Notes under the pieces: generated by a model
Databases searched by the model: none
What the model saw: the letters and a program-made list of their open reading frames with translations, nothing else
Told to the model about the DNA's origin: nothing
DNA from: a virus
Taxonomy: Duplodnaviria > Heunggongvirae > Uroviricota > Caudoviricetes
Strand: one strand, 5' to 3'
DNA length: 12,640 bases
Virus record (IMG/VR): IMGVR_UViG_2526164619_000008
Span: 1 to 12,640 of that record
Program-made: the position numbers and the translations under genes
In this document: positions 1 to 12,640 of the stretch, piece by piece
Layout of the letters: each line of letters starts with the position of its first letter
Numbering within the stretch: the stretch's first letter is position 1

Positions 1-141
1 TTACTGCTTACACTGTAAGAATGCCGCAAACTCCGCTCCCCAGAAGCTCATCCGTATTTCGCACAGCGAACCGTGCAGCATCCAGATGATGAGGATTGCC
101 GTCACGCAGAACGTGATGGCCGTAAGCGATTTTTGCGACAT
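1..141 (-). CDS. Hok/Gef-family type I toxin-like small membrane peptide (46 aa)
   Basis: Minus-strand ORF, ATG at 141..139, stop at 3..1, translation MSQKSLTAITFCVTAILIIWMLHGSLCEIRMSFWGAEFAAFLQCKQ. Hydrophobic N-terminal segment followed by SLCEIR and G-x-E-x-AAF with the same spacing as plasmid R1 Hok (recalled: ...[23 protein letters not shown]...). AGGAG about 8 nt upstream of the ATG. Too short to appear in the supplied ORF track. Confidence 0.6.
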   Translation of the reverse strand: MSQKSLTAITFCVTAILIIWMLHGSLCEIRMSFWGAEFAAFLQCKQ

Positions 142-331: not shown

Positions 332-592
332 TTAATTCTGAGGTAAGGGCAAACTCATCTGATTGTTTCCTCTGTGTGAAGTTGGCAGTTCATGCCACGG
401 GATGCCCTCTGATGAGTGAATGGGGGAGGCGTGCTTTGAAGTGAATTTGTGGAAGGCTTCCAGTGTTGAGAAACATACGCCGCATTCTAGATTGTTACAC
501 TGATAATACTTTTGTCTCACGGTGTTTGAATCATTTTCCGGACGACTGGTGCGGATACGGGCAGATGCGCCACAAAGCGGACAACGGAACAT
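332..592 (-). CDS. ogr: Ogr/Delta-family zinc-finger late-gene transcription activator (86 aa, divergent)
   Basis: Translation begins MFRCPLCGASARIRTSRPE...YYQCNNLECG, matching the P2 Ogr N-terminus (recalled MFHCPLCQHAAHARTSR...YHQCQNVNCS) and its Cys-x2-Cys...Cys-x4-Cys arrangement. It sits downstream of gene D in the same orientation, as in P2, but with cargo in between. Confidence 0.7.
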   Translation of the reverse strand: MFRCPLCGASARIRTSRPENDSNTVRQKYYQCNNLECGVCFSTLEAFHKFTSKHASPIHSSEGIPWHELPTSHRGNNQMSLPLPQN

Positions 593-654
593 AGCGACCT
601 CTCTTATTGTAGTGCTTGCACTATTCTAGGTTGTATTCTCTAAGATTTAAACAT

Positions 655-663: not shown

Positions 664-718
664 GGTAATGCTGCCAACTTACTGATTTAGTGTATGATGG
701 TGATTTTAAGGTGCTTGC

Positions 719-994
719 ATGGCTTCCATTTCCATCAGATGTCCTTCCTGCTCCGCTACTGAAGGCGTGGTGCGTAACGGCAAAAGCACTGCCGGACATC
801 AGCGCTATCTCTGCTCTCATTGCCGTAAAACATGGCAACTACAGTTCACTTACACCGCCTCTCAGCCCGGTACGCACCAGAAAATCATTGATATGGCCAT
901 GAATGGCGTCGGATGTCGCGCCAGTGCACGCATTATGGGCGTTGGCCTCAACACGGTTTTACGTCACTTAAAAAACTCAGGCCGCAGTCGGTAA
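719..994 (+). CDS. insA: IS1 InsA transposition regulator (91 aa)
   Basis: Translation [43 protein letters not shown]... is the recognisable InsA sequence. Confidence 0.95.
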
Positions 995-1416
995 CCTCGC
1001 GCATACAACCGGGCAGTGATGTGATTGTCTGCGCTGAAATGGACGAACAGTGGGGCTACGTCGGTGCTAAATCACGTCAGCGCTGGCTGTTTTACGCGTA
1101 TGACAGGATACGGAGGACGGTTGTGGCGCACGTCTTCGGTGAACGCACTCTGGCCACACTGGAGCGTCTTCTGAGCCTGCTGTCGGCCTTTGAGGTCGTG
1201 GTATGGATGACGGATGGCTGGCCGCTGTATGAATCACGCCTGAAGGGAAAGCTGCACGTTATCAGCAAGCGTTACACTCAGCGCATTGAGCGACATAATC
1301 TGAATCTGAGACAACATCTGGCAAGGCTGGGACGGAAGTCACTGTCGTTCTCAAAATCGGTGGAGCTGCATGACAAGGTCATCGGGCATTATCTGAACAT
1401 AAAACACTATCAGTAA
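913..1416 (+). CDS. insB: IS1 InsB reading frame, normally expressed as the InsAB' transposase by -1 frameshift at the A6C run 970..976
   Basis: Translation ...[26 protein letters not shown]...[38 protein letters not shown] is the recognisable InsB; AAAAAAC motif lies in the insA/insB overlap. Confidence 0.9.
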
Positions 1417-1431
1417 GTTGGAGTCATTATC

Positions 1432-1440
1432 GACTTTCTC
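1432..1440. repeat. 9-bp target-site duplication (GACTTTCTC), right copy, of the first IS1
   Basis: Exact repeat of 655..663. Confidence 0.85.
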
Positions 1441-1464
1441 TATATAATGATTTTTAGCATTAGT

Positions 1465-1496
1465 TAATAAACGAACGGCACTCTAAGGAGCGCCGT
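1465..1496 (-). terminator. Putative intrinsic terminator of the large cargo ORF
   Basis: On the minus strand, directly after the ORF stop: a 9-bp stem (ACGGCGCTC / GAGTGCCGT, one G-U pair) with a 4-nt loop, followed by TCGTTTATT. Folded by eye only. Confidence 0.45.
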
Positions 1497-1504
1497 CAAA
1501 GATA

Positions 1505-4336
1505 TTATTCTGATGTCACTCTTTGCGAGTGAGCTATTTTTAAATCAGCGTTTCCTTCAAATACTATATTCAACTCATAGTTAAGAGTTAGCTTGAATTT
1601 ATCTGAGTCACTTTTGATATTCTCTGAAGTGACATTTACTAACTTATTATTATCATATTCTCTAATAATTAATTTAGTGAAGTAGTTATCCTTTACCACT
1701 AGAGAAAATGGTTGATTAACAAATGGTAAGAAGTAAACCTTACAGGTACCGGATTCAGTAGTTATGTTCATAGAGCCATCATCATTTTTTCTCATTAGTT
1801 CTCTGAGGTTGGGATTATCGAAAAGCATACGATTATATTGCTGAAAGATCTCTTTACTCATCACAAGAACCAGTTTGCCAGCCAAGTCAGCAGATGATTT
1901 TATGTGATCAATCAACATATTGAAATCTTCTATTACGGTATGTTGCGAACAGCCAGTGCTAAATAAATTTGAAAGTATTATTCTCTGGATGTCCTTGAGA
2001 ATTAAGTCTGCTTGAATATCACCTTCATTGATATAAGGGATGGATTCTATTCCTTCGGCATACGGTTCTTTATCTATCTTAATAGATATCTTATGTTTTG
2101 TGAAACAATCGCTAGCCTGCTTAAAATCAATAGATTTGAAAAGTGAAAGAGGGAGTGTTTTCTTGATGCGTTTACGAAGATGTTCTGATGTTTTACGTGC
2201 AGTGCTATCTAGTCGATGTACATCTATGGCAGCATCCTGAAGTCTCATATCAAGATCTTTCTTTAGCATGTTAATATGCTCTTGAAGCAACTTTCTTAAG
2301 TTTTCTTTTTTTGTTTGGAGATCGTCCAATGTTAAAGTCAGCTTGATTTTAGTGTATTCGATGGAGTTACAAATTTTTGATAATACTCCAATGAGTCGTT
2401 GCTTCTCACGATATGTTATATAGTTTTTTTCTATTGCTTCTTTTATTTCTTTTGATACGCTATCGTTCTTGTTAGAAAAAATTAATAATAGCTGAACCCA
2501 TGATTGTTCCATATCAATAAATCCACAGTCAAAAACATTACTGTAAACTCTGCCCATCACCATGTCTGTTTTATCATAGTCACGTAAACGCCTTGCTAAA
2601 CTATTCATCCACCCATTGTGCTCCATATTTTCAGACCATGTCCACAGGCAGATTCTAATTAATATCTTGATTAGTTGGCTTGCATTATCAATTTCTTCAG
2701 TGGGAGTTTCATATCCACCGGTTTGGTCAATAAGTTTACCCTCTAAAATAAGTTTAATGTAATGTGTCATTAATTTGTCAGAAATATTGATTCTTGATGT
2801 CAGATAAAGACATGTGCATATACGCATGTCAGTCAACGCATTTATGATGGCAATATTGAACCACTCTCTGTCTGAATTGAAGTTTAGTTTTTTGGATATG
2901 AAAAAACCCGGGTTAAAAAGCTGGCCTTTGTAACTGTATTTTTCTACCGAATGGCTGTCAATATTCATTGAGTGCTGCCATCGGTTAATAAGAACGACGG
3001 CTGTATCAATAGTAGAAGGATCGCGAGTCTGTGTTGCATCAATAATCATCGATGGAAGTTCTTGTAGTTGCGTTTTGCAAAATAATTCAAATAAATCTGA
3101 ATTCTCTGTATTGCAGAAACGAAAGTTTATGCTTTCTTGATATTGCTCCCAAACAGTGGTATAGGTTCTTAATATACGATTATAACGTGAACGAAGCGAG
3201 GCATTTAAGAGTGATTGGTTGTTTCGGAACCATTCTGTTAATATTGACCATTGTGAACGAGTAATTCCCATATAGATACAAAGTTCATTGGTGATAAGAT
3301 GTTTTCTATTATTGATAATACGCACTCCGCTCCAAAGACATAATTCAAAAAATCTTTCAGAAAGATTAATTTTATCCATGGAATTATTTGATATTTTATA
3401 AACTTCATCTGAAAACTCATATTGAAAACTCCGTTCAAATAATTCTGTAGTGATCAGTAAGAAGTTATTGTTGGTATTATCATCTTGAAAAAAATACAAA
3501 TCGCAGAGATTATTAAAGTTATTAATTAATGCAGAGATAGCATTGTCAAAACTAATGAGATCAGAATCCCGCAGATACATATACGTATCTGCTGTTATAG
3601 CCTGCATTGTAAGACTTACGGAAAAATCTCCTCCTTTAATCGGAGCCCTATAAAAACATTGCTTAAGTATTTTTATTAATAAGCTGTCTGGTTTGATATT
3701 TTTAACGCTAAAAAGTATCTTACCCGTGGATTCTGTTTCTTTTGTACGATTATCACCAATGACAAATGACGCAAAATGATTCTTCTTTTTTAGTTGGTAA
3801 TTAATAAGATTAAGAGTAAGTTGAAAAGGACGGTGATATAAACTTAACTCATCTTCCTTAGAATAACTGCTAGCCACAGATATGTATTCTCCTTTGTAAC
3901 CGGCTTGCTTGATTTCTAAATTTGAATAGTTATGTTTTTGATAGATAGGGTATAACCTAAGCTTGGCTGAGATTTTGTTACAAATATGGGGCATTACTAT
4001 TTCGAAGGCAATGTATCGCTTTATAATTATTTGCCGTTTTACATCATCAAGAATTTCAAGACTCACGATAAAGAACCAAATAGAAAGAACTATGTTTATC
4101 AAAAGCCATAATATGCTGATTAGACAAGCTATACCATAAAGATAACTTCCAAAGACAGTTTTAATTAGTACACTGAGAAGTATAAATCCTGATAAGAAAA
4201 GCCCGCTGAGTCCAGCAAGCATGAATCCTGAGTAACGCTGATAAGCAGTTTGGGCTATTTTTCTATCTGCCTTTTTTTGGAATAAGACACTTACTAAACC
4301 TATAACAAGTGGGTATACAATACCAATAATTGTCAA
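1505..4336 (-). CDS. Large orphan protein (~943 aa) with a hydrophobic N-terminal region (about three predicted transmembrane helices) and a long Ile/Asn/Lys-rich soluble domain with coiled-coil-like stretches; function unknown
   Basis: Single uninterrupted ORF in a visibly AT-rich segment. The ORF-track start is TTG at 4336; the first in-frame ATG is at 4222 (codon 39), so the true start is uncertain. No Walker A or other catalytic motif recognised by eye. Confidence 0.7.
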   Translation of the reverse strand: MTIIGIVYPLVIGLVSVLFQKKADRKIAQTAYQRYSGFMLAGLSGLFLSGFILLSVLIKTVFGSYLYGIACLISILWLLINIVLSIWFFIVSLEILDDVKRQIIIKRYIAFEIVMPHICNKISAKLRLYPIYQKHNYSNLEIKQAGYKGEYISVASSYSKEDELSLYHRPFQLTLNLINYQLKKKNHFASFVIGDNRTKETESTGKILFSVKNIKPDSLLIKILKQCFYRAPIKGGDFSVSLTMQAITADTYMYLRDSDLISFDNAISALINNFNNLCDLYFFQDDNTNNNFLLITTELFERSFQYEFSDEVYKISNNSMDKINLSERFFELCLWSGVRIINNRKHLITNELCIYMGITRSQWSILTEWFRNNQSLLNASLRSRYNRILRTYTTVWEQYQESINFRFCNTENSDLFELFCKTQLQELPSMIIDATQTRDPSTIDTAVVLINRWQHSMNIDSHSVEKYSYKGQLFNPGFFISKKLNFNSDREWFNIAIINALTDMRICTCLYLTSRINISDKLMTHYIKLILEGKLIDQTGGYETPTEEIDNASQLIKILIRICLWTWSENMEHNGWMNSLARRLRDYDKTDMVMGRVYSNVFDCGFIDMEQSWVQLLLIFSNKNDSVSKEIKEAIEKNYITYREKQRLIGVLSKICNSIEYTKIKLTLTLDDLQTKKENLRKLLQEHINMLKKDLDMRLQDAAIDVHRLDSTARKTSEHLRKRIKKTLPLSLFKSIDFKQASDCFTKHKISIKIDKEPYAEGIESIPYINEGDIQADLILKDIQRIILSNLFSTGCSQHTVIEDFNMLIDHIKSSADLAGKLVLVMSKEIFQQYNRMLFDNPNLRELMRKNDDGSMNITTESGTCKVYFLPFVNQPFSLVVKDNYFTKLIIREYDNNKLVNVTSENIKSDSDKFKLTLNYELNIVFEGNADLKIAHSQRVTSE

Positions 4337-4871
4337 TTGGCCACTTAAAATGGTTGTTTGCCATTCGGTTAATGAATGCCTAAACGGGAAATAATGTAAA
4401 AGATTATTTTTTATAAATAATTCGTTTAAATATCCAACATAAAGTAGTACAAATGAAAAAGCTGATATGCAAAGTACTGATTTAACCGGTGAGGATGTTA
4501 ATCTTATGATGTTTTTTCAATAAAATTCCATTTTAAATTCGAATAAAATGGATTTTTAACCATTTTATTACGAACATAGTTCTTTGCTAAAATCTCTGTT
4601 GCACTTAAAAATTGTCCAATCATGAATTACTCTTCTATAAAGTGTGGGTCTACTAACTAAACTGGAATTTTTACTATTGAGTCATATTCCCTTGGACGGG
4701 ATGGACTGTGAAGATTATACTTGACTTCCTCTGTCATGTGGGAAAAACATCCGTATTATTGTTAGCATCTGGTTGATGCCCCAACCTCTGACATCTAGTG
4801 GGCTGATACATTATCTTTTGTTCTTACTGTCAGTGTAGAAGCACATCTCAAAAATAATATTTTTAAGAGAT
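4337..4871 (-). promoter_or_regulatory. AT-rich ~535-bp non-coding leader between the D stop and the cargo ORF; presumed promoter/regulatory region
   Basis: No ORF longer than ~26 codons on either strand; composition shifts abruptly at the gene D stop codon (4872). Confidence 0.35.
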
Positions 4872-5980
4872 TTATTCTATTTCTGCTATCCATTCCGGGA
4901 TTTTTGCTTCAAGTTCAAGCTGCGTGGTAAAGCCGCTGTTATCAATGGTGTGCTCGGCTTTTGCAATAATCCAGTCCTGATAATCAATCTCGCTTTTAAA
5001 GCCTGTCACTGTGCCATGCATTTCGGGATAGAGTTCTGCACGACCACGCGCCAGCGTGATGGAGAATGATGCGGCTCCGCGTTGTAGCTGCTGCCACTTT
5101 GCCGCCGCTGCGCGTCTTGCTGCCTGCTCGTTCTGATAAGTCTTGCGTAACACAAACACGTTGCCTTCCGCACCTTCCATATAGTCGCCTTCCCGACTGC
5201 TGCTTTTCTCCTTTTTGGGTTTTGGCGGTTTGCGGCGTTTCACGTTGACTTTTTTCTTTTCCCGTAATTAAGATCAAGCCAGTAGGCGCGTACCCCTGTA
5301 TACGCCTCGCGGTCAGCAATGCGGAACTGATGGCGATCGCCGCTGCTGCGTGTAATGGCGAACGAGGGCAACGGCTGCCCCTGTGCGTTCACGCCACCAC
5401 CTGGCATGATGAATAACAGATTGCCGCTTTTTACCGTGGCGATTGCTCCCAGCATTTCCGCCATGCGCGTAAGAAAGGACATGTCGCTTTCTTCGGTCTG
5501 GTCGGCGTGGTCGATTTCGATATCCATCAGCATTTCGCTGATTTGCGGTTTCAGGCCGTACCGATGAGCGATGGCGGATACCACACGCTCAACGGTCACA
5601 TCATGCCAGGACACCTCACGTTTAACGTTAAATTCATCCCGAAAATCTGCGCTTCTGGCTGAAACAGTCAGCCTGTCCGGCGGTCCTTCGTGAGCGATTT
5701 CATCAACAATGTAAGTGCCTTTTTCTGTCAGCGGTTCCCCTTTCCAGCCAATGAGAACCGTCAGACGCGCGCCCCGTGGCGGTAGCTGCAACTGACCATC
5801 CGCATCATCCAGCGTGATGGTGAGCTGGTCCGCCTCAAATCCCCGGTTGTCGGTCAGTGACAGGCACATCAGGCGCTCCGCCACGCCTGACAGCGTTTTA
5901 CCCTCCGAGAGAATATCAAAATCCGGCATTTTCACGGGGGCCGTGCCCTGACTGAGCAATTGCATGGTGGTGTCGGTCAT
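4872..5980 (-). pseudogene. D: P2-type tail protein D, interrupted by one frameshift in a homopolymer run (5250..5255)
   Basis: Two adjacent minus-strand ORFs (5240..6112 and 4872..5243) together match gpD (LTDNRGFEADQLTITLDDADGQLQLP..., SWHD, ITRSSGDRHQFRIADREAYTGV, REGDYMEGAEGNVFVL, GFTTQLELE). Adding one A to the AAAAAA run restores ...GKRKKVNVKRRKPPKPKKE.... Likely start is ATG at 5980 (MTDTTMQLL) with AGGGAGGGAG upstream. Confidence 0.85.
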
Positions 5981-6137
5981 CTGCTCCCTCCCTGTGCGGC
6001 ATGGTCGCATGTGCGTGCGGATGGGGTTACTGCTTTTTGTTGTCGCCGTGGCGGGAGAACGGCGCAGGGGTGAGATTGCGCGCGTGGTGGGTGATGATTG
6101 TTGCTGAATCATTTAACGGATACAAGGGGCTGAAGCT

Positions 6138-7322
6138 ATGAGTGAAACTCGTTTTCATGGTGCCCGTGTTACGGAGAATACCGACCTGGTAACAGCGATT
6201 AACGATGTTGATTCCAGCGTTATCGGTATCGTGGCAACGGCGGATGATGCGGACGCGAAGCTGTTCCCGCTGAACAAGCCCACACTGCTGACCCGCGTCA
6301 ATGACGTGCTGGGAAAATGCGGGACAACGGGGACGCTTTATCGTGCGCTTAAGGCCATCGCAGACCAGGTGAGCACAAAGGTGATCGTCGTTCGCGTGGC
6401 TGAACACAAAGAAGAAGACGGAAAGACGCAGGATCAACTGGTTATCGGTGGTTCTGAGGATGACGGCAGCTATACGGGGATGTATGCGCTGCTTGTTGCA
6501 GAGCAGGATGAAAGCATCGGATACCGTCCGCATATTCTGGCCGCGCCGGAGCTGGACACGGAGGCGGTAACAAAATCCCTGTGCGTGATTGCAGATAAAC
6601 TGCGCGCGTTTGTGTATGCCTCATGTCATGGCTGTAACACGATGGCCGAGGCAATTACCTACCGCCAGAAATTCAACGAACGTGAGGTGATGCTCTTATG
6701 GCCGGACTTCATCGCCTACAACCCGAAAAATGGCAAAAACGAAACGTTCCCCGCGCCTGCCTATGCGTGCGGCCTTCGTGCGTACATTGACCATGAACAG
6801 GGATGGCACAAATCGCTGTCCAACGTTCCGGTTAAAAATGTGCTGGGGATGTCGAGGCATGTGTTCTGGTCGTTGCAGGCCGAAGACAGCGATGCCAACA
6901 GCCTCAACAACAAAGAAATCACGACCATTATTCGTCGCAACGGGTTCCGCTTCTGGGGTAACCGCACACCGGAAACGAATGCCTACATCTTTGAGGTGTA
7001 TACCCGAACCGCACAGGTGCTGGCTGATTCAATTGCGGAAGCGCAGTTTGAAACCATCGACAGTCCACTGACGCCTGCGAATGTGAAGGATGTTATCAGT
7101 GCCATCAGGGCAAAACTGGATTCACTGGTGACTGCCGGGAAACTGATTGGCGCGGAGTGCTGGTATGACGTGGTGGATAACAGCACCACGGATTTACGTC
7201 AGGGACGTGTGCGTATTCGCTACAAATATACGCCCGTTCCGCCACTGGAAGACATGGAGCTTTACCAGACGTTTACTGATGAATACTTTGAACCCGCATT
7301 TGCGGTGCTGGGAGGTGCCTGA
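6138..7322 (+). CDS. FI: P2-type contractile tail sheath protein FI (394 aa)
   Basis: Translation contains DADAKLFPLNKPTLL, KLRAFVYAS, LLWPDF, EQGWHKSLSNV, RRNGFRFWGNRT, YTRTAQVLAD, YKYTPVPPLE, which match recalled P2 FI blocks; size matches (P2 FI ~396 aa); AAGGGG RBS. Confidence 0.9.
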   Translation: MSETRFHGARVTENTDLVTAINDVDSSVIGIVATADDADAKLFPLNKPTLLTRVNDVLGKCGTTGTLYRALKAIADQVSTKVIVVRVAEHKEEDGKTQDQLVIGGSEDDGSYTGMYALLVAEQDESIGYRPHILAAPELDTEAVTKSLCVIADKLRAFVYASCHGCNTMAEAITYRQKFNEREVMLLWPDFIAYNPKNGKNETFPAPAYACGLRAYIDHEQGWHKSLSNVPVKNVLGMSRHVFWSLQAEDSDANSLNNKEITTIIRRNGFRFWGNRTPETNAYIFEVYTRTAQVLADSIAEAQFETIDSPLTPANVKDVISAIRAKLDSLVTAGKLIGAECWYDVVDNSTTDLRQGRVRIRYKYTPVPPLEDMELYQTFTDEYFEPAFAVLGGA

Positions 7323-7819
7323 TGGCTGTGCCAAAACATCTTCGCTTTTTTACGCTGTTTGTGGATGGTGAAAACGAAGTGGGTAAGGTGACGTCCGTCA
7401 CTCTGCCTAAGCTGACGCGCAAAACCGACAGCTACCGGGGTGGTGGCATGATGGGTGCGGTAAGTATTGATCTCGGTCTGGACGACTCCGCGCTTGATGC
7501 GAGCTTTGTCATGGGGGGCGCAGTTCGTGAGCTGTTCCTTAAGTATGGCGGCACGATTGACGGCACGCTGCTGCGTTTTGCGGGTGAATACTACACCGAT
7601 GCAGAAAGCGACCTGTATGAAGTCGAAATGCGCGGACGTGTGACGGAAATTGATATGGGCGAAGCCACATCACACACTTACGCCATTAAAAACACCTACT
7701 ACAAGCTGAGTGTTAACGATCGCCCGTTGTGGGAGATTGACCTGCTGAACTTCATTTACCGGAAGGACGGCAAGGACATTGTGCCCGATCGCATCCGTTC
7801 CGCGCTTGGGCTTGGCTGA
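7322..7819 (+). CDS. FII: P2-type tail tube protein FII (165 aa)
   Basis: Start overlaps the FI stop (TGATG); GGAGGTG RBS; position and size match P2 FII. Confidence 0.85.
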   Translation: MAVPKHLRFFTLFVDGENEVGKVTSVTLPKLTRKTDSYRGGGMMGAVSIDLGLDDSALDASFVMGGAVRELFLKYGGTIDGTLLRFAGEYYTDAESDLYEVEMRGRVTEIDMGEATSHTYAIKNTYYKLSVNDRPLWEIDLLNFIYRKDGKDIVPDRIRSALGLG

Positions 7820-7874
7820 TAAGTAATATGCTGGCGGCGCAGTGCGTCGCCTCTGACTGAAAAGGAGACAACAG

Positions 7875-8249
7875 ATGAAAGACATCGATACTGAAACCCG
7901 GAATAACACCGTGGCGGATAATGTGACGGCAGTTGAGGATATGGCTGTCGAACGTGGCGTAAAACTGACCCGACCAATTGAGCGTGGTGGCGAAAAAATC
8001 ACGTATGTGGAGATCACCGGGGCTATTGAGCAGGCTGGATCCCTGCGTGGTCTGTCGCTGTCTGATGCGCTGAATCTGAAAGCGGATACCATGTTCACGC
8101 TGTTGCCTCGCGTGACCTCGCCACGACTGGATGAAGTGATGATTAAAAAAATGTCGTCACGCGATTTTATTCAGTTGTGCGCTGTGGCTGTAAATTTTAT
8201 GAGCGAGCCAGACTCTGGCGCGAAGAGCGTGCAGGAGACGGCAGCGTAA
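7875..8249 (+). CDS. E: Tail assembly chaperone E-like protein (124 aa)
   Basis: Called by synteny (directly after FII), AAAGGAG RBS 7 nt upstream of the ATG, and an overlapping -1 frame ORF as in the P2 E/E' pair. Not confirmed by sequence identity. Confidence 0.65.
   Translation: MKDIDTETRNNTVADNVTAVEDMAVERGVKLTRPIERGGEKITYVEITGAIEQAGSLRGLSLSDALNLKADTMFTLLPRVTSPRLDEVMIKKMSSRDFIQLCAVAVNFMSEPDSGAKSVQETAA
8192..8198 (+). other. Candidate -1 programmed frameshift heptamer A_AAT_TTT joining E to E'
   Basis: Zero-frame codons AAT TTT preceded by A give an X_XXY_YYZ heptamer inside the 8177..8249 overlap of the E frame and the -1 frame. Confidence 0.4.
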
Positions 8250-8389
8250 TCACCCTGGTGTGCTTTGAGCACATCGAAGATCTGGTGGCGGATATTGCCG
8301 CCATTTTTAACTGGTCGCCCGCCGAAATCTTCATGATGACGCCCGGCGAAGTGGTTAGCTGGCGTGAGCGGGCGGCACTTCGTAGCGGG
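8198..8389 (+). pseudogene. E' extension reading frame (-1 relative to E), 3' end cut by IS1
   Basis: The -1 frame stays open from 8177 and runs into IS1 with no native stop (...EVVSWRERAALRSGG then IS1-encoded NAANLLI*). Confidence 0.55.
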
Positions 8390-8444
8390 GGTAATGCTGC
8401 CAACTTACTGATTTAGTGTATGATGGTGATTTTAAGGTGCTTGC

Positions 8445-8720
8445 GTGGCTTCCATTTCCATCAGATGTCCTTCCTGCACCGCTACTGAAGGCGTGGTGCG
8501 TAACGGCAAAAGCACTGCCGGACATCAGCGCTATCTCTGCTCTCATTGCCGTAAAACATGGCAACTACAGTTCACTTACACCGCCTCTCAGCCCGGTACG
8601 CACCAGAAAATCATTGATATGGCCATGAATGGCGTCGGATGTCGCGCCAGTGCACGCATTATGGGCGTTGGCCTCAACACGGTTTTACGTCACTTAAAAA
8701 ACTCAGGCCGCAGTCGGTAA
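8445..8720 (+). CDS. insA: IS1 InsA (91 aa; GTG start in this copy)
   Basis: Same protein as 719..994 with one substitution (S12T); start codon GTG here versus ATG in the first copy. Confidence 0.95.
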
Positions 8721-9142
8721 CCTCGCGCATACAACCGGGCAGTGATGTGATTGTCTGCGCTGAAATGGACGAACAGTGGGGCTACGTCGGTGCTAAATCA
8801 CATCAGCGCTGGCTGTTTTACGCGTATGACAGGATACGGAGGACGGTTGTGGCGCACGTCTTCGGTGAACGCACTCTGGCCACACTGGAGCGTCTTCTGA
8901 GCCTGCTGTCGGCCTTTGAGGTCGTGGTATGGATGACGGATGGCTGGCCGCTGTATGAATCACGCCTGAAGGGAAAGCTGCACGTTATCAGCAAGCGTTA
9001 CACTCAGCGCATTGAGCGACATAATCTGAATCTGAGACAACATCTGGCAAGGCTGGGACGGAAGTCACTGTCGTTCTCAAAATCGGTGGAGCTGCATGAC
9101 AAGGTCATCGGGCATTATCTGAACATAAAACACTATCAGTAA
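8639..9142 (+). CDS. insB: IS1 InsB reading frame (InsAB' via -1 frameshift at A6C 8696..8702)
   Basis: Same as 913..1416 with one substitution (R55H). Confidence 0.9.
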
Positions 9143-9157
9143 GTTGGAGTCATTACC

Positions 9158-10353
9158 GAGTCGCGCATGGTGGCCCCGTTCCATTTGGGGTTCGGATGAC
9201 CGTTCTCCGTTGTTGCGTGGTATTTTGACGGGCAGTTGACAGTCAGAAACACCGCTTTGTCACCACGGGCTTCGGCCAGAGGTTCCAGCCCCTTCATGGT
9301 GGCCATCATTTCTGCCTTACGGTGAACCGGGTTACTTACTCCCGCGTAATACACTGTCTCGAGATCAATCGTGAACCCGTCTTCATTTTCCAGCATGAAA
9401 CTTTTCAGGAAATCGCGTGTTTTCTCGCGCTGTGCGCGAAACTCGCTTAACGCGTCCTGGCTCAGATAGGGCGATGTTTTTCTGAAAACCAGACAGGCGG
9501 CGCGGAGTTGTTCTTCTCTCCACTCGCAACGTAACAGCCACAGTTTGCGTTTCCACCATTCTGCACAGGTCAGGCGAAGGATTGCGCCCGGCAGCAGCTC
9601 CGTGTCCGGTTCGTTCCTCCGGTCTTTGTCTGTTGTCAGTGCGTCATAATGTGGAGGCATGGCGTGCAGGTGTAACGCCATGCGGGCCAGCATCTGATAC
9701 GCCTTCAGCGTTACATCCATGGTCAGTTCGCCATCGGTCGCGCCAAAGCCATCGCAGAGTTTTTCGAAGGTGCTGCTGAACATCGCTGCCGTCATGGTGG
9801 CCAGTGTCTGTATCTGGTGTTTGTTGAGCTGCGGCAGGTAAAGCAAATCGTCCAGGCGTTCGCGTCCGGCAAGGGAGCGATAACCCTGTGTCAGCCAGCG
9901 GTGATCGGTGCGCTCCAGACGTTCGAATATTTTGCGCAGGTTTCCGCGCGCGTAGCGTTCAGCCTGCCAGCTCTTTTTGCCTTTCTGACGATCGGCTTCC
10001 TGTTTTTTGCGCAGGAAGGAGAGGTGGCGAATAAGCGGATCGCGCAGATAGGACGGCAGCAGGCGCAGCGAGGCCATGGCTTCATCCACCGCGCCGCGTG
10101 CCTGTTTTCTGGCATCTCCTGCCAGTGTGATGGTTTTGTCCTGTTTTTCCTGTGCGTCCAGGCTTTTATTAATCAGGTTGCCCAGCGGCGTTGCGGAGAA
10201 CGCCGCATCAGCCATTTCCTGGCGGCGCTCGTTCTCTACCCGGTAGGCATCCAGCCAGGAGGAAAGCGCGGATTCAGGAGCGGGGATCCCCGTTCCTTCA
10301 CGCCCCACTGCGTGGCGCGGTTGTTGCCAGTCCCTGATGTACTCTGCCGTCAT
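9158..10353 (-). pseudogene. A: P2-type replication initiation protein A, N-terminal ~398 codons only; 3' part replaced by IS1
   Basis: Translation has HAVGREGTG and FLTVNCPSKYHATT blocks resembling recalled P2/186 A-protein motifs; the ORF runs from ATG 10353 into the IS1 right end, whose sequence supplies the last 7 codons and stop. P2 A is ~761 aa, so the catalytic C-terminal half is missing. Confidence 0.7.
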
Positions 10354-10725: not shown

Positions 10726-10866
10726 TGCGGCAATCCTCTTGTTACAGATGTGCGAAGGCCTCCCGCCGCAAGGTGCAGGAAAGGCCCGGAATAGGAATTA
10801 ATGGAGTTTGTTTTGCTGCCGGATGAGCAGCTGAAGCCCGACGTGGTTTCCGGCAGTTGGAGGTGC

Positions 10867-12266: not shown

Positions 12267-12640
<374 letters not shown>

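Follow-up and report, generated by a model that had tools for sequence, protein, structure and literature searches.

The ogr-like gene on the minus strand of the window (the whole 12,640-nt stretch of viral DNA that was analysed) most probably codes for the normal activator of late genes in Xuanwuvirus, the P88-like branch of P2-like phages, and has stayed intact in an otherwise inactivated prophage; we put the probability of this reading at about 85%. The gene comprises 86 codons and a stop codon (332..592; ATG at 592–590, stop at 334–332), and its translation is exactly the 86-aa sequence quoted in the initial annotation, which had described an activator divergent from and about 14 residues longer than P2 Ogr and had raised a different promoter specificity or decay as possible reasons. 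For the window itself the difference matters little, being ordinary family variation. On a wider scale, P88-like phages, whose lineage is represented in about one in five complete E. coli genomes, appear to control their late genes through just two central predicted activator sites, the right half-site of which differs from that of P2, and the textbook 72-aa P2 Ogr appears as a short family member, not the norm.

The gene product is a long-tailed member of the Ogr/Delta family

The Pfam family Ogr_Delta (PF04606) matched residues 3–49 of the protein (E = 5.3e-14, 52.3 bits, cut-off 26.3), and the protein also matched PHROG 603 (transcriptional regulator). Codons 1–50 (443..592, minus strand) encode the zinc-ribbon core and the start of the following helix, with the cysteines C4, C7, C32 and C37, which were invariant or nearly so across the family alignments. 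Alignments and dN/dS values divided codons 51–86 (335..442, minus strand) into a variable linker (approximately residues 54–63) and a conserved tail motif. The zinc motif reads CX2CX24CX4C, the X24 spacing in place of the family's X22 resulting from a 2-residue loop insertion that is common to the long forms of Escherichia and Salmonella. An AF2 model built from a 17-sequence alignment contained a three-stranded zinc ribbon (strands 10–15, 28–32 and 41–43) and a helix (44–54) at a pLDDT of 70–82. The NCBIfam P2-Ogr equivalog model (NF007241 / PRK09678) was not reached (44.2 bits against a cut-off of 116, residues 1–61 only). Judged from these sequence matches, the ORF at 332–592 is a real gene, not a chance ORF, and its product is an Ogr/Delta family member, not an Ogr equivalog. 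A profile search of the PDB gave only weak matches to the NrdR zinc ribbon (best E = 0.002), Foldseek against the PDB gave none below E = 0.1, its top weak matches being zinc-ribbon domains of serine integrases, and a literature search returned no paper or experiment on the 86-aa protein or any long-tailed member. The protein is already catalogued in RefSeq with the right family name, and the phages to which it belongs have been grown in the laboratory.

According to their annotated reference records, P2 Ogr and 186 B are each 72 aa long, so that the stated excess of 14 residues is correct. The extra residues come from the zinc loop (2), from a block of about 10 residues (W-H-E-L-P-T-S-H-R-G) and from the C-terminal end (3). 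Overall identity was 34% to P2 Ogr and 31–33% to 186 B, and the 28/73 identities in the BLASTP alignment with P2 Ogr lay nearly all within the first 50 residues. The window protein has in common with P2 Ogr and 186 B the Ogr_Delta zinc ribbon with its four cysteines, the conserved RTSR and YxQC motifs and the location of the gene behind gpD, where the late region ends; it differs from them in a zinc loop that is 2 residues longer (CX2CX22CX4C in P2) and in a tail that is about 12 residues longer and bears a PxSHRG motif. The proposal of a conserved zinc core followed by a differing C-terminal half was thus borne out. A profile search of 1.84 billion representative proteins yielded 185 family members at E ≤ 0.001, and since the median length of the best 150 of these 185 was 82 aa, a length of 86 aa is typical of the family and the 72-aa proteins of P2 and 186 are short. 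"Divergent and longer" therefore holds in relation to P2 Ogr, but not as a statement of unusual length.

The tail motif of the window protein reads I64-P-W-x-x-L-P-x-S-H-R-G-x-x-Q-M-S-L-P-L and the family consensus (I/V)Pxxx(L/F)PxSH(R/Q/Y)GxxQ(L/M)x(L/M). When aligned with representatives from Klebsiella Reipivirus, Enterobacter Novemvirus, Salmonella, Symbiopectobacterium and metagenomes, the tail did differ from P2 Ogr and 186 B, as the initial annotation had it, but its motif was kept across genera down to 32–45% overall identity. The tails of P2 (…LPSGQQIMWM) and 186 (…TVGGQRPLWL) look like contracted versions of the segment present in the long forms. Among eight Escherichia/Citrobacter alleles, dN/dS (Nei-Gojobori; the pairs share ancestry and the values are descriptive) was 0.08 for codons 1–50, 0.12 for codons 51–86 and 0.09 for the motif itself (codons 64–86). 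These values speak plainly for purifying selection on the tail and against its decay. The tail was modelled at a pLDDT of 48–58, which suggests that on its own it is probably flexible or disordered; at this low confidence the model lends no structural support to a role of the tail.

The initial annotation presumed that RNA polymerase is contacted by the C-terminus in this family; the genetic evidence that could be traced comes from P2. A published account (PMC11434276, citing King et al. 1992) describes P2 ogr mutations that suppress rpoA109 (L290H). In our alignment, residue 42 of P2 Ogr corresponds to Leu44 in the window protein and to Met42 in 186 B. The genetic evidence of King and co-workers from 1992 reportedly concerns one single Ogr residue, and the rpoA109-suppressor residue, which we take to be Tyr42, lies beside the fourth cysteine of the zinc motif and outside the tail. 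Truncation of the C-terminus of Ogr or B is said to have been the subject of work by Gebhardt in 1993 and Pountney in 1997, and P2 Ogr with C-terminal truncations reportedly retains partial activity, a point not used as evidence here.

A near-identical protein is encoded by plaque-forming P88-like phages

The exact 86-aa protein was present on 477 public contigs, where it is named ogr/Delta-like zinc finger family protein. A 650-bp segment with hok and ogr was found at a coverage of at least 80% in 1158 of 5426 complete E. coli genomes, and this DNA always adjoined ihfA, at one end of a P2-like prophage with its late genes complete. The protein is identical in strain VG38-53E1, the prophage of which (L001) has late genes and is apparently complete. 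In tblastn searches against deposited phages, matches over 86/86 residues at 95–96.5% identity were obtained with P88, 500465-2, Chuche, PhiR44_2 and phiSM, and matches at 89–91% identity with two further Xuanwuvirus members. P88 is inducible with mitomycin C and plaque-forming, with a burst size of about 65 (PMC5285337), and phiSM is released spontaneously, forms plaques on K-12 strains and lysogenises them (PMC6456863). The idea of an unusual C-terminus did not survive this comparison: in P88 (Xuanwuvirus P88, NC_026014, 34476–34736; 95.3% identity) and phiSM the ogr ORF is likewise 86 aa long and 95.3–96.5% identical, including the whole tail, and differs by only 3–4 conservative substitutions (G57P, V58I and A71T in both, D68E in P88 only).

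In line with this, the gene neighbourhood is that of P88-like phages. The order gpD, ogr, hok was found in P88, phiSM, P88_4B11 and PhiR44_2, and the window shares with P88 and phiSM the location of ogr after gpD and before hok/gef at the ihfA-side end of the prophage as well as the same activator-site sequence between gpD and FI (see below); it differs in that gpD and ogr are separated by a cargo gene and an IS1 and that the phage is defective. Over the hok-ogr, gpD-FI-FII-E and gpA/early segments, the window DNA was 93–97.5% identical to P88. By these matches the gene and its flanks belong to the Xuanwuvirus (P88-like) gene set. More distant long forms are the Ogr proteins (82–83 aa) of Klebsiella Reipivirus and Enterobacter Novemvirus, which have a long tail with FPASHYG..QL.L, the divergent gpD/FI layout of P88-like phages and exactly two GTTGT-N12-AGACC sites per genome, but are only 42–47% identical and have neither the 2-residue zinc-loop insertion nor the last 3 residues.

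The surrounding prophage is inactivated

Directly downstream of ogr lies a hok/gef gene (1–141, minus strand; Pfam HOK_GEF, 29.9 bits); no Rfam family, Sok and hok RNA included, reached the gathering threshold anywhere in the window. On the other side, a first IS1 copy of 768 bp (664..1431, plus strand) represents a simple insertion at a distance of 72 bp upstream from the ogr ATG, with a 9-bp target duplication (GACTTTCTC) on either side (655–663 and 1432–1440); the junction of IS1 and ogr had no match among species-representative genomes, and positions 1–663 and 1432–8389 of the window are collinear with L001 (20001–20663 and 20655–27619, with a 9-bp overlap). The IS1 is followed by a large cargo ORF (1505–4336, minus strand), part of a gene (1505–4623; L001 20728–23847) that is frameshifted near 4513–4537 relative to a 1039-aa ORF of VG38-53E1 annotated as an MFS transporter; the cargo protein had no match in Pfam, NCBIfam, PHROGs or PADLOC. 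The contents of the slot between D and ogr vary, with a GmrSD nuclease in SK1144 and no cargo at all in P88, so that it looks like a variable cargo or defence hotspot, here with an uncharacterised protein. Next comes a gpD homologue (4872..5980, minus strand; located by tblastn with P88 gpD, the gene that precedes ogr in P88), in which a 1-nt deletion in an A-run (GGGAAAAAGAAAAAAG) near 5257 has split the coding sequence into two frames, compared with a single frame in L001 and L002; on this reading the gpD of the window is a pseudogene. In the PGAP annotation, the intact gpD of both L001 and L002 is only 266 aa long, whereas tblastn shows the full 366-aa frame.

Beyond the sheath gene FI (6138–7322, plus strand) and the tube gene FII (7322–7819, plus strand), a second IS1 copy (8390..9157, plus strand) has no target duplication and joins the E'/T region to codon ~398 of gpA. 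Its flanks map to positions 30908 and 7152 of P88, indicating that about 24 kb have been lost, and with them the genes for tail, baseplate, lysis, head and packaging as well as the P/O promoter region. Only the first ~400 codons of gpA remain (9136–10353, minus strand), followed by early genes; Pfam Phage_GPA matches only the first 405 aa, and the truncated gpA ORF was also found on 5 short contigs. The two IS1 copies have the same orientation and are 99.6% identical, and the IS1 pair with the deletion of about 24 kb fits either an adjacent deletion mediated by IS1 or a recombination event between copies of the element. As far as its reading frames and junctions tell, the window is a broken P2-like prophage killed by IS1 and frameshifts, with ogr intact. 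In addition, the early region near 10840–10856 is without about 1.9 kb of P88 (3587–5470). Homology to P88 ends before cox/C (12267–12640 of the window), suggesting an immunity type other than that of P88.

Late promoters of P88-like phages carry a predicted activator site with a distinct right half

A single match to the pattern GTTGT-N12-AGA[AC]C was found within the window. This predicted Ogr-type activator site (GTTGTCGCCGTGGCGGGAGAAC, 6039..6060, plus strand) is centred between the divergent genes gpD and FI and is conserved in P88, L001, phiT5282H and ST16-OXA48phi5.4. The annotated P2 activator sites, recovered as a positive control, read GTTGT-N12-CCATC (pP/pO), GTTGT-N12-CCAAC (pF) and GTTGT-N12-CAAAT (pV). 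An exact TGT-N12-ACA pattern gave no match at a P88 late promoter and also missed P2's own annotated sites; because of the latter failure it was replaced by the pattern taken from the P2 sites. In P88, GTTGT-N12-AGAAC occurs in the P/O (14214–14235) and FI/D (33253–33274) intergenic regions, both times approximately central between divergent start codons, as is the case for the site that pP and pO share in P2. In phiT5282H and ST16-OXA48phi5.4, the FI/D region retains TTTTTGTTGTC-N11-AGACC amid otherwise diverged sequence. Whole-genome scans of these two phages gave exactly two matches each, in the P/O intergenic region and at the FI/D junction, with about 0.15 expected; the pattern came in part from the very phages in which its matches were counted, while the P/O matches of phiT5282H and ST16-OXA48phi5.4 were a prediction outside the building of the pattern. 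Altogether, three phage genomes had matches in or beside P/O and FI/D, compared with 0.1–0.15 expected per genome. A third exact match in P88 (28823–28844) lies inside the tape-measure gene T and may be a chance occurrence or an internal site, and in SK1144 the right half-site reads AGAAT.

Compared with P2, the FI-FII-E-T-U block has the opposite orientation in P88-like, Novemvirus and Reipivirus phages. Through this inversion, a short region with one predicted activator site at its centre lies between gpD-ogr and FI-U, which point away from each other. The FI/D layout mirrors that of P/O (P88 33176–33332 and 14152–14305), and there are only two such sites per genome. The putative cognate sites of the long forms share with P2 the left half GTTGT, the spacing of 12 bp and their place midway between divergent promoters, but their right half-site is AGA(A/C)C in place of CCA(A/T)C. 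Long-tailed activators are thus apparently associated with a late regulon controlled by two central predicted sites. The suggestion of a different promoter specificity has limited support: the right half-site has shifted, while the left half and the spacing are those of P2, and the shift belongs to the whole lineage and is not a feature of the window alone. As the P/O site was lost with the deletion, the window retains only the FI/D site.

We infer DNA binding, the site and activation by the 86-aa protein from its likeness to P2 Ogr, 186 B and P4 Delta. By this analogy the N-terminal C4 zinc ribbon would bind the imperfect dyad TTTTGTTGT-N12-AGA(A/C)C, situated midway between the divergent late promoters of P/O and FI/D, and host RNA polymerase would be recruited from there. 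The longer C-terminal half would be a lineage-typical, probably flexible tail, the conserved motif of which (IPxxxhPxSHRGxxQhxL) is maintained under purifying selection; contact with a partner or dimerisation is our guess at its role. In its present surroundings the protein could act at most on the site at 6039–6060, or on incoming P88-like phages or satellites.

Alternative explanations for the long tail and the state of the gene

In a prophage that is evidently dead, with two IS1 copies, a deletion of about 24 kb and frameshifts in gpD and the cargo gene, the C-terminal half of the protein might have been changed by drift, frameshift or read-through, and decay had been one of the explanations offered at the outset. 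We regard this as practically excluded, given that the reading frame is undamaged and matches exactly the allele of L001, a prophage with late genes, that it recurs on 477 contigs, that only 3–4 residues separate it from the proteins of plaque-forming phages and that dN/dS in the tail is about 0.12; moreover, conservation of the tail as amino acids across genera means that it is not a frameshifted tail. Rather unlikely, in our estimation, is an intact ORF that is silent or mis-regulated because IS1 has severed its upstream control. P88 ogr may be co-transcribed with gpD from the late D promoter, the gap between D and ogr in P88 being only 42 nt with no good -35 seen, and transcription of the F operon in P2 also extends into ogr, in keeping with a terminator note in the P2 record; an IS1 72 bp upstream of ogr would interrupt such a transcript. 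However, in the IS1-free prophages L001 and L002 cargo of 0.1–3 kb already separates D from ogr, and the 71 bp upstream of the ATG are the same as in the window. Within this segment, a consensus scan located a sigma-70 promoter-like sequence between ogr and IS1 (TTTAAA-17-TAGAAT, 623..651, minus strand), the TAGAAT of which is conserved in P88 and the geometry of which resembles that of the annotated P2 Pogr (-35 and -10 at 63 and 34–40 nt before the ATG), and a Shine-Dalgarno-like GAGAGG, read from the sequence, stands 5 nt before the ATG (598..603, minus strand) in a context (GGAGGTCGCTATG) also present in P88. Since L001 and L002 combine cargo with the same upstream 71 bp, a private ogr promoter that was left untouched is likely, and with the promoter-like site, the ribosome-binding site and the shared 71 bp all remaining, ogr is plausibly still expressed. 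IS1 copy 1 stands 13 bp from the putative -35 and might alter this expression.

The long tail and the AGA(A/C)C half-site could also mark a distinct specificity class, in which P88-type activators and those of the P2-186-P4 type would not cross-activate or would contact RNA polymerase differently. All three genera of long-tail phages examined share AGA(A/C)C, which is absent from the annotated sites of P2, the tail motif is under purifying selection and is lacking or contracted in P2 Ogr and 186 B, and the position of P2 Ogr residue 42 is occupied by Leu in the window protein and by Met in 186 B. Set against this, P2 has the same left half-site and 12-bp spacing and likewise has its site centred between divergent promoters, the three P2 sites themselves vary in their right half (CCATC, CCAAC and CAAAT), and tail and half-site correlate within a single clade only. 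Cross-activation is broad in the family, with P4 Delta, 186 B, PSP3 Pag and phiR73 Delta all acting on P2 late promoters, which likewise counts against such a class. We therefore consider separate specificity unlikely, and it is similarly doubtful that hPxSH(R/Y)GxxQhxL together with AGA(A/C)C defines an uncharacterised class whose late regulon, in P88-like, Reipivirus and Novemvirus phages, would comprise two sites and four promoters; if it did, the class could set which helper phages and P4-like satellites cross-activate. An ordinary late-gene activator of the P88-like branch remains our preferred reading.

Annotation of ogr in phage records

The P88 record (NC_026014) has no CDS annotated for ogr at 34476–34736. 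In the phiSM record (OR565851), the name ogr/Delta-like zinc finger family protein has been given to the gpD CDS (349–1458), while the real ogr ORF has no annotation. With ogr unannotated in P88 and mislabelled in phiSM, automated comparisons can miss the gene. The sheath gene of phiSM is, in the same record, labelled late control gene D protein.
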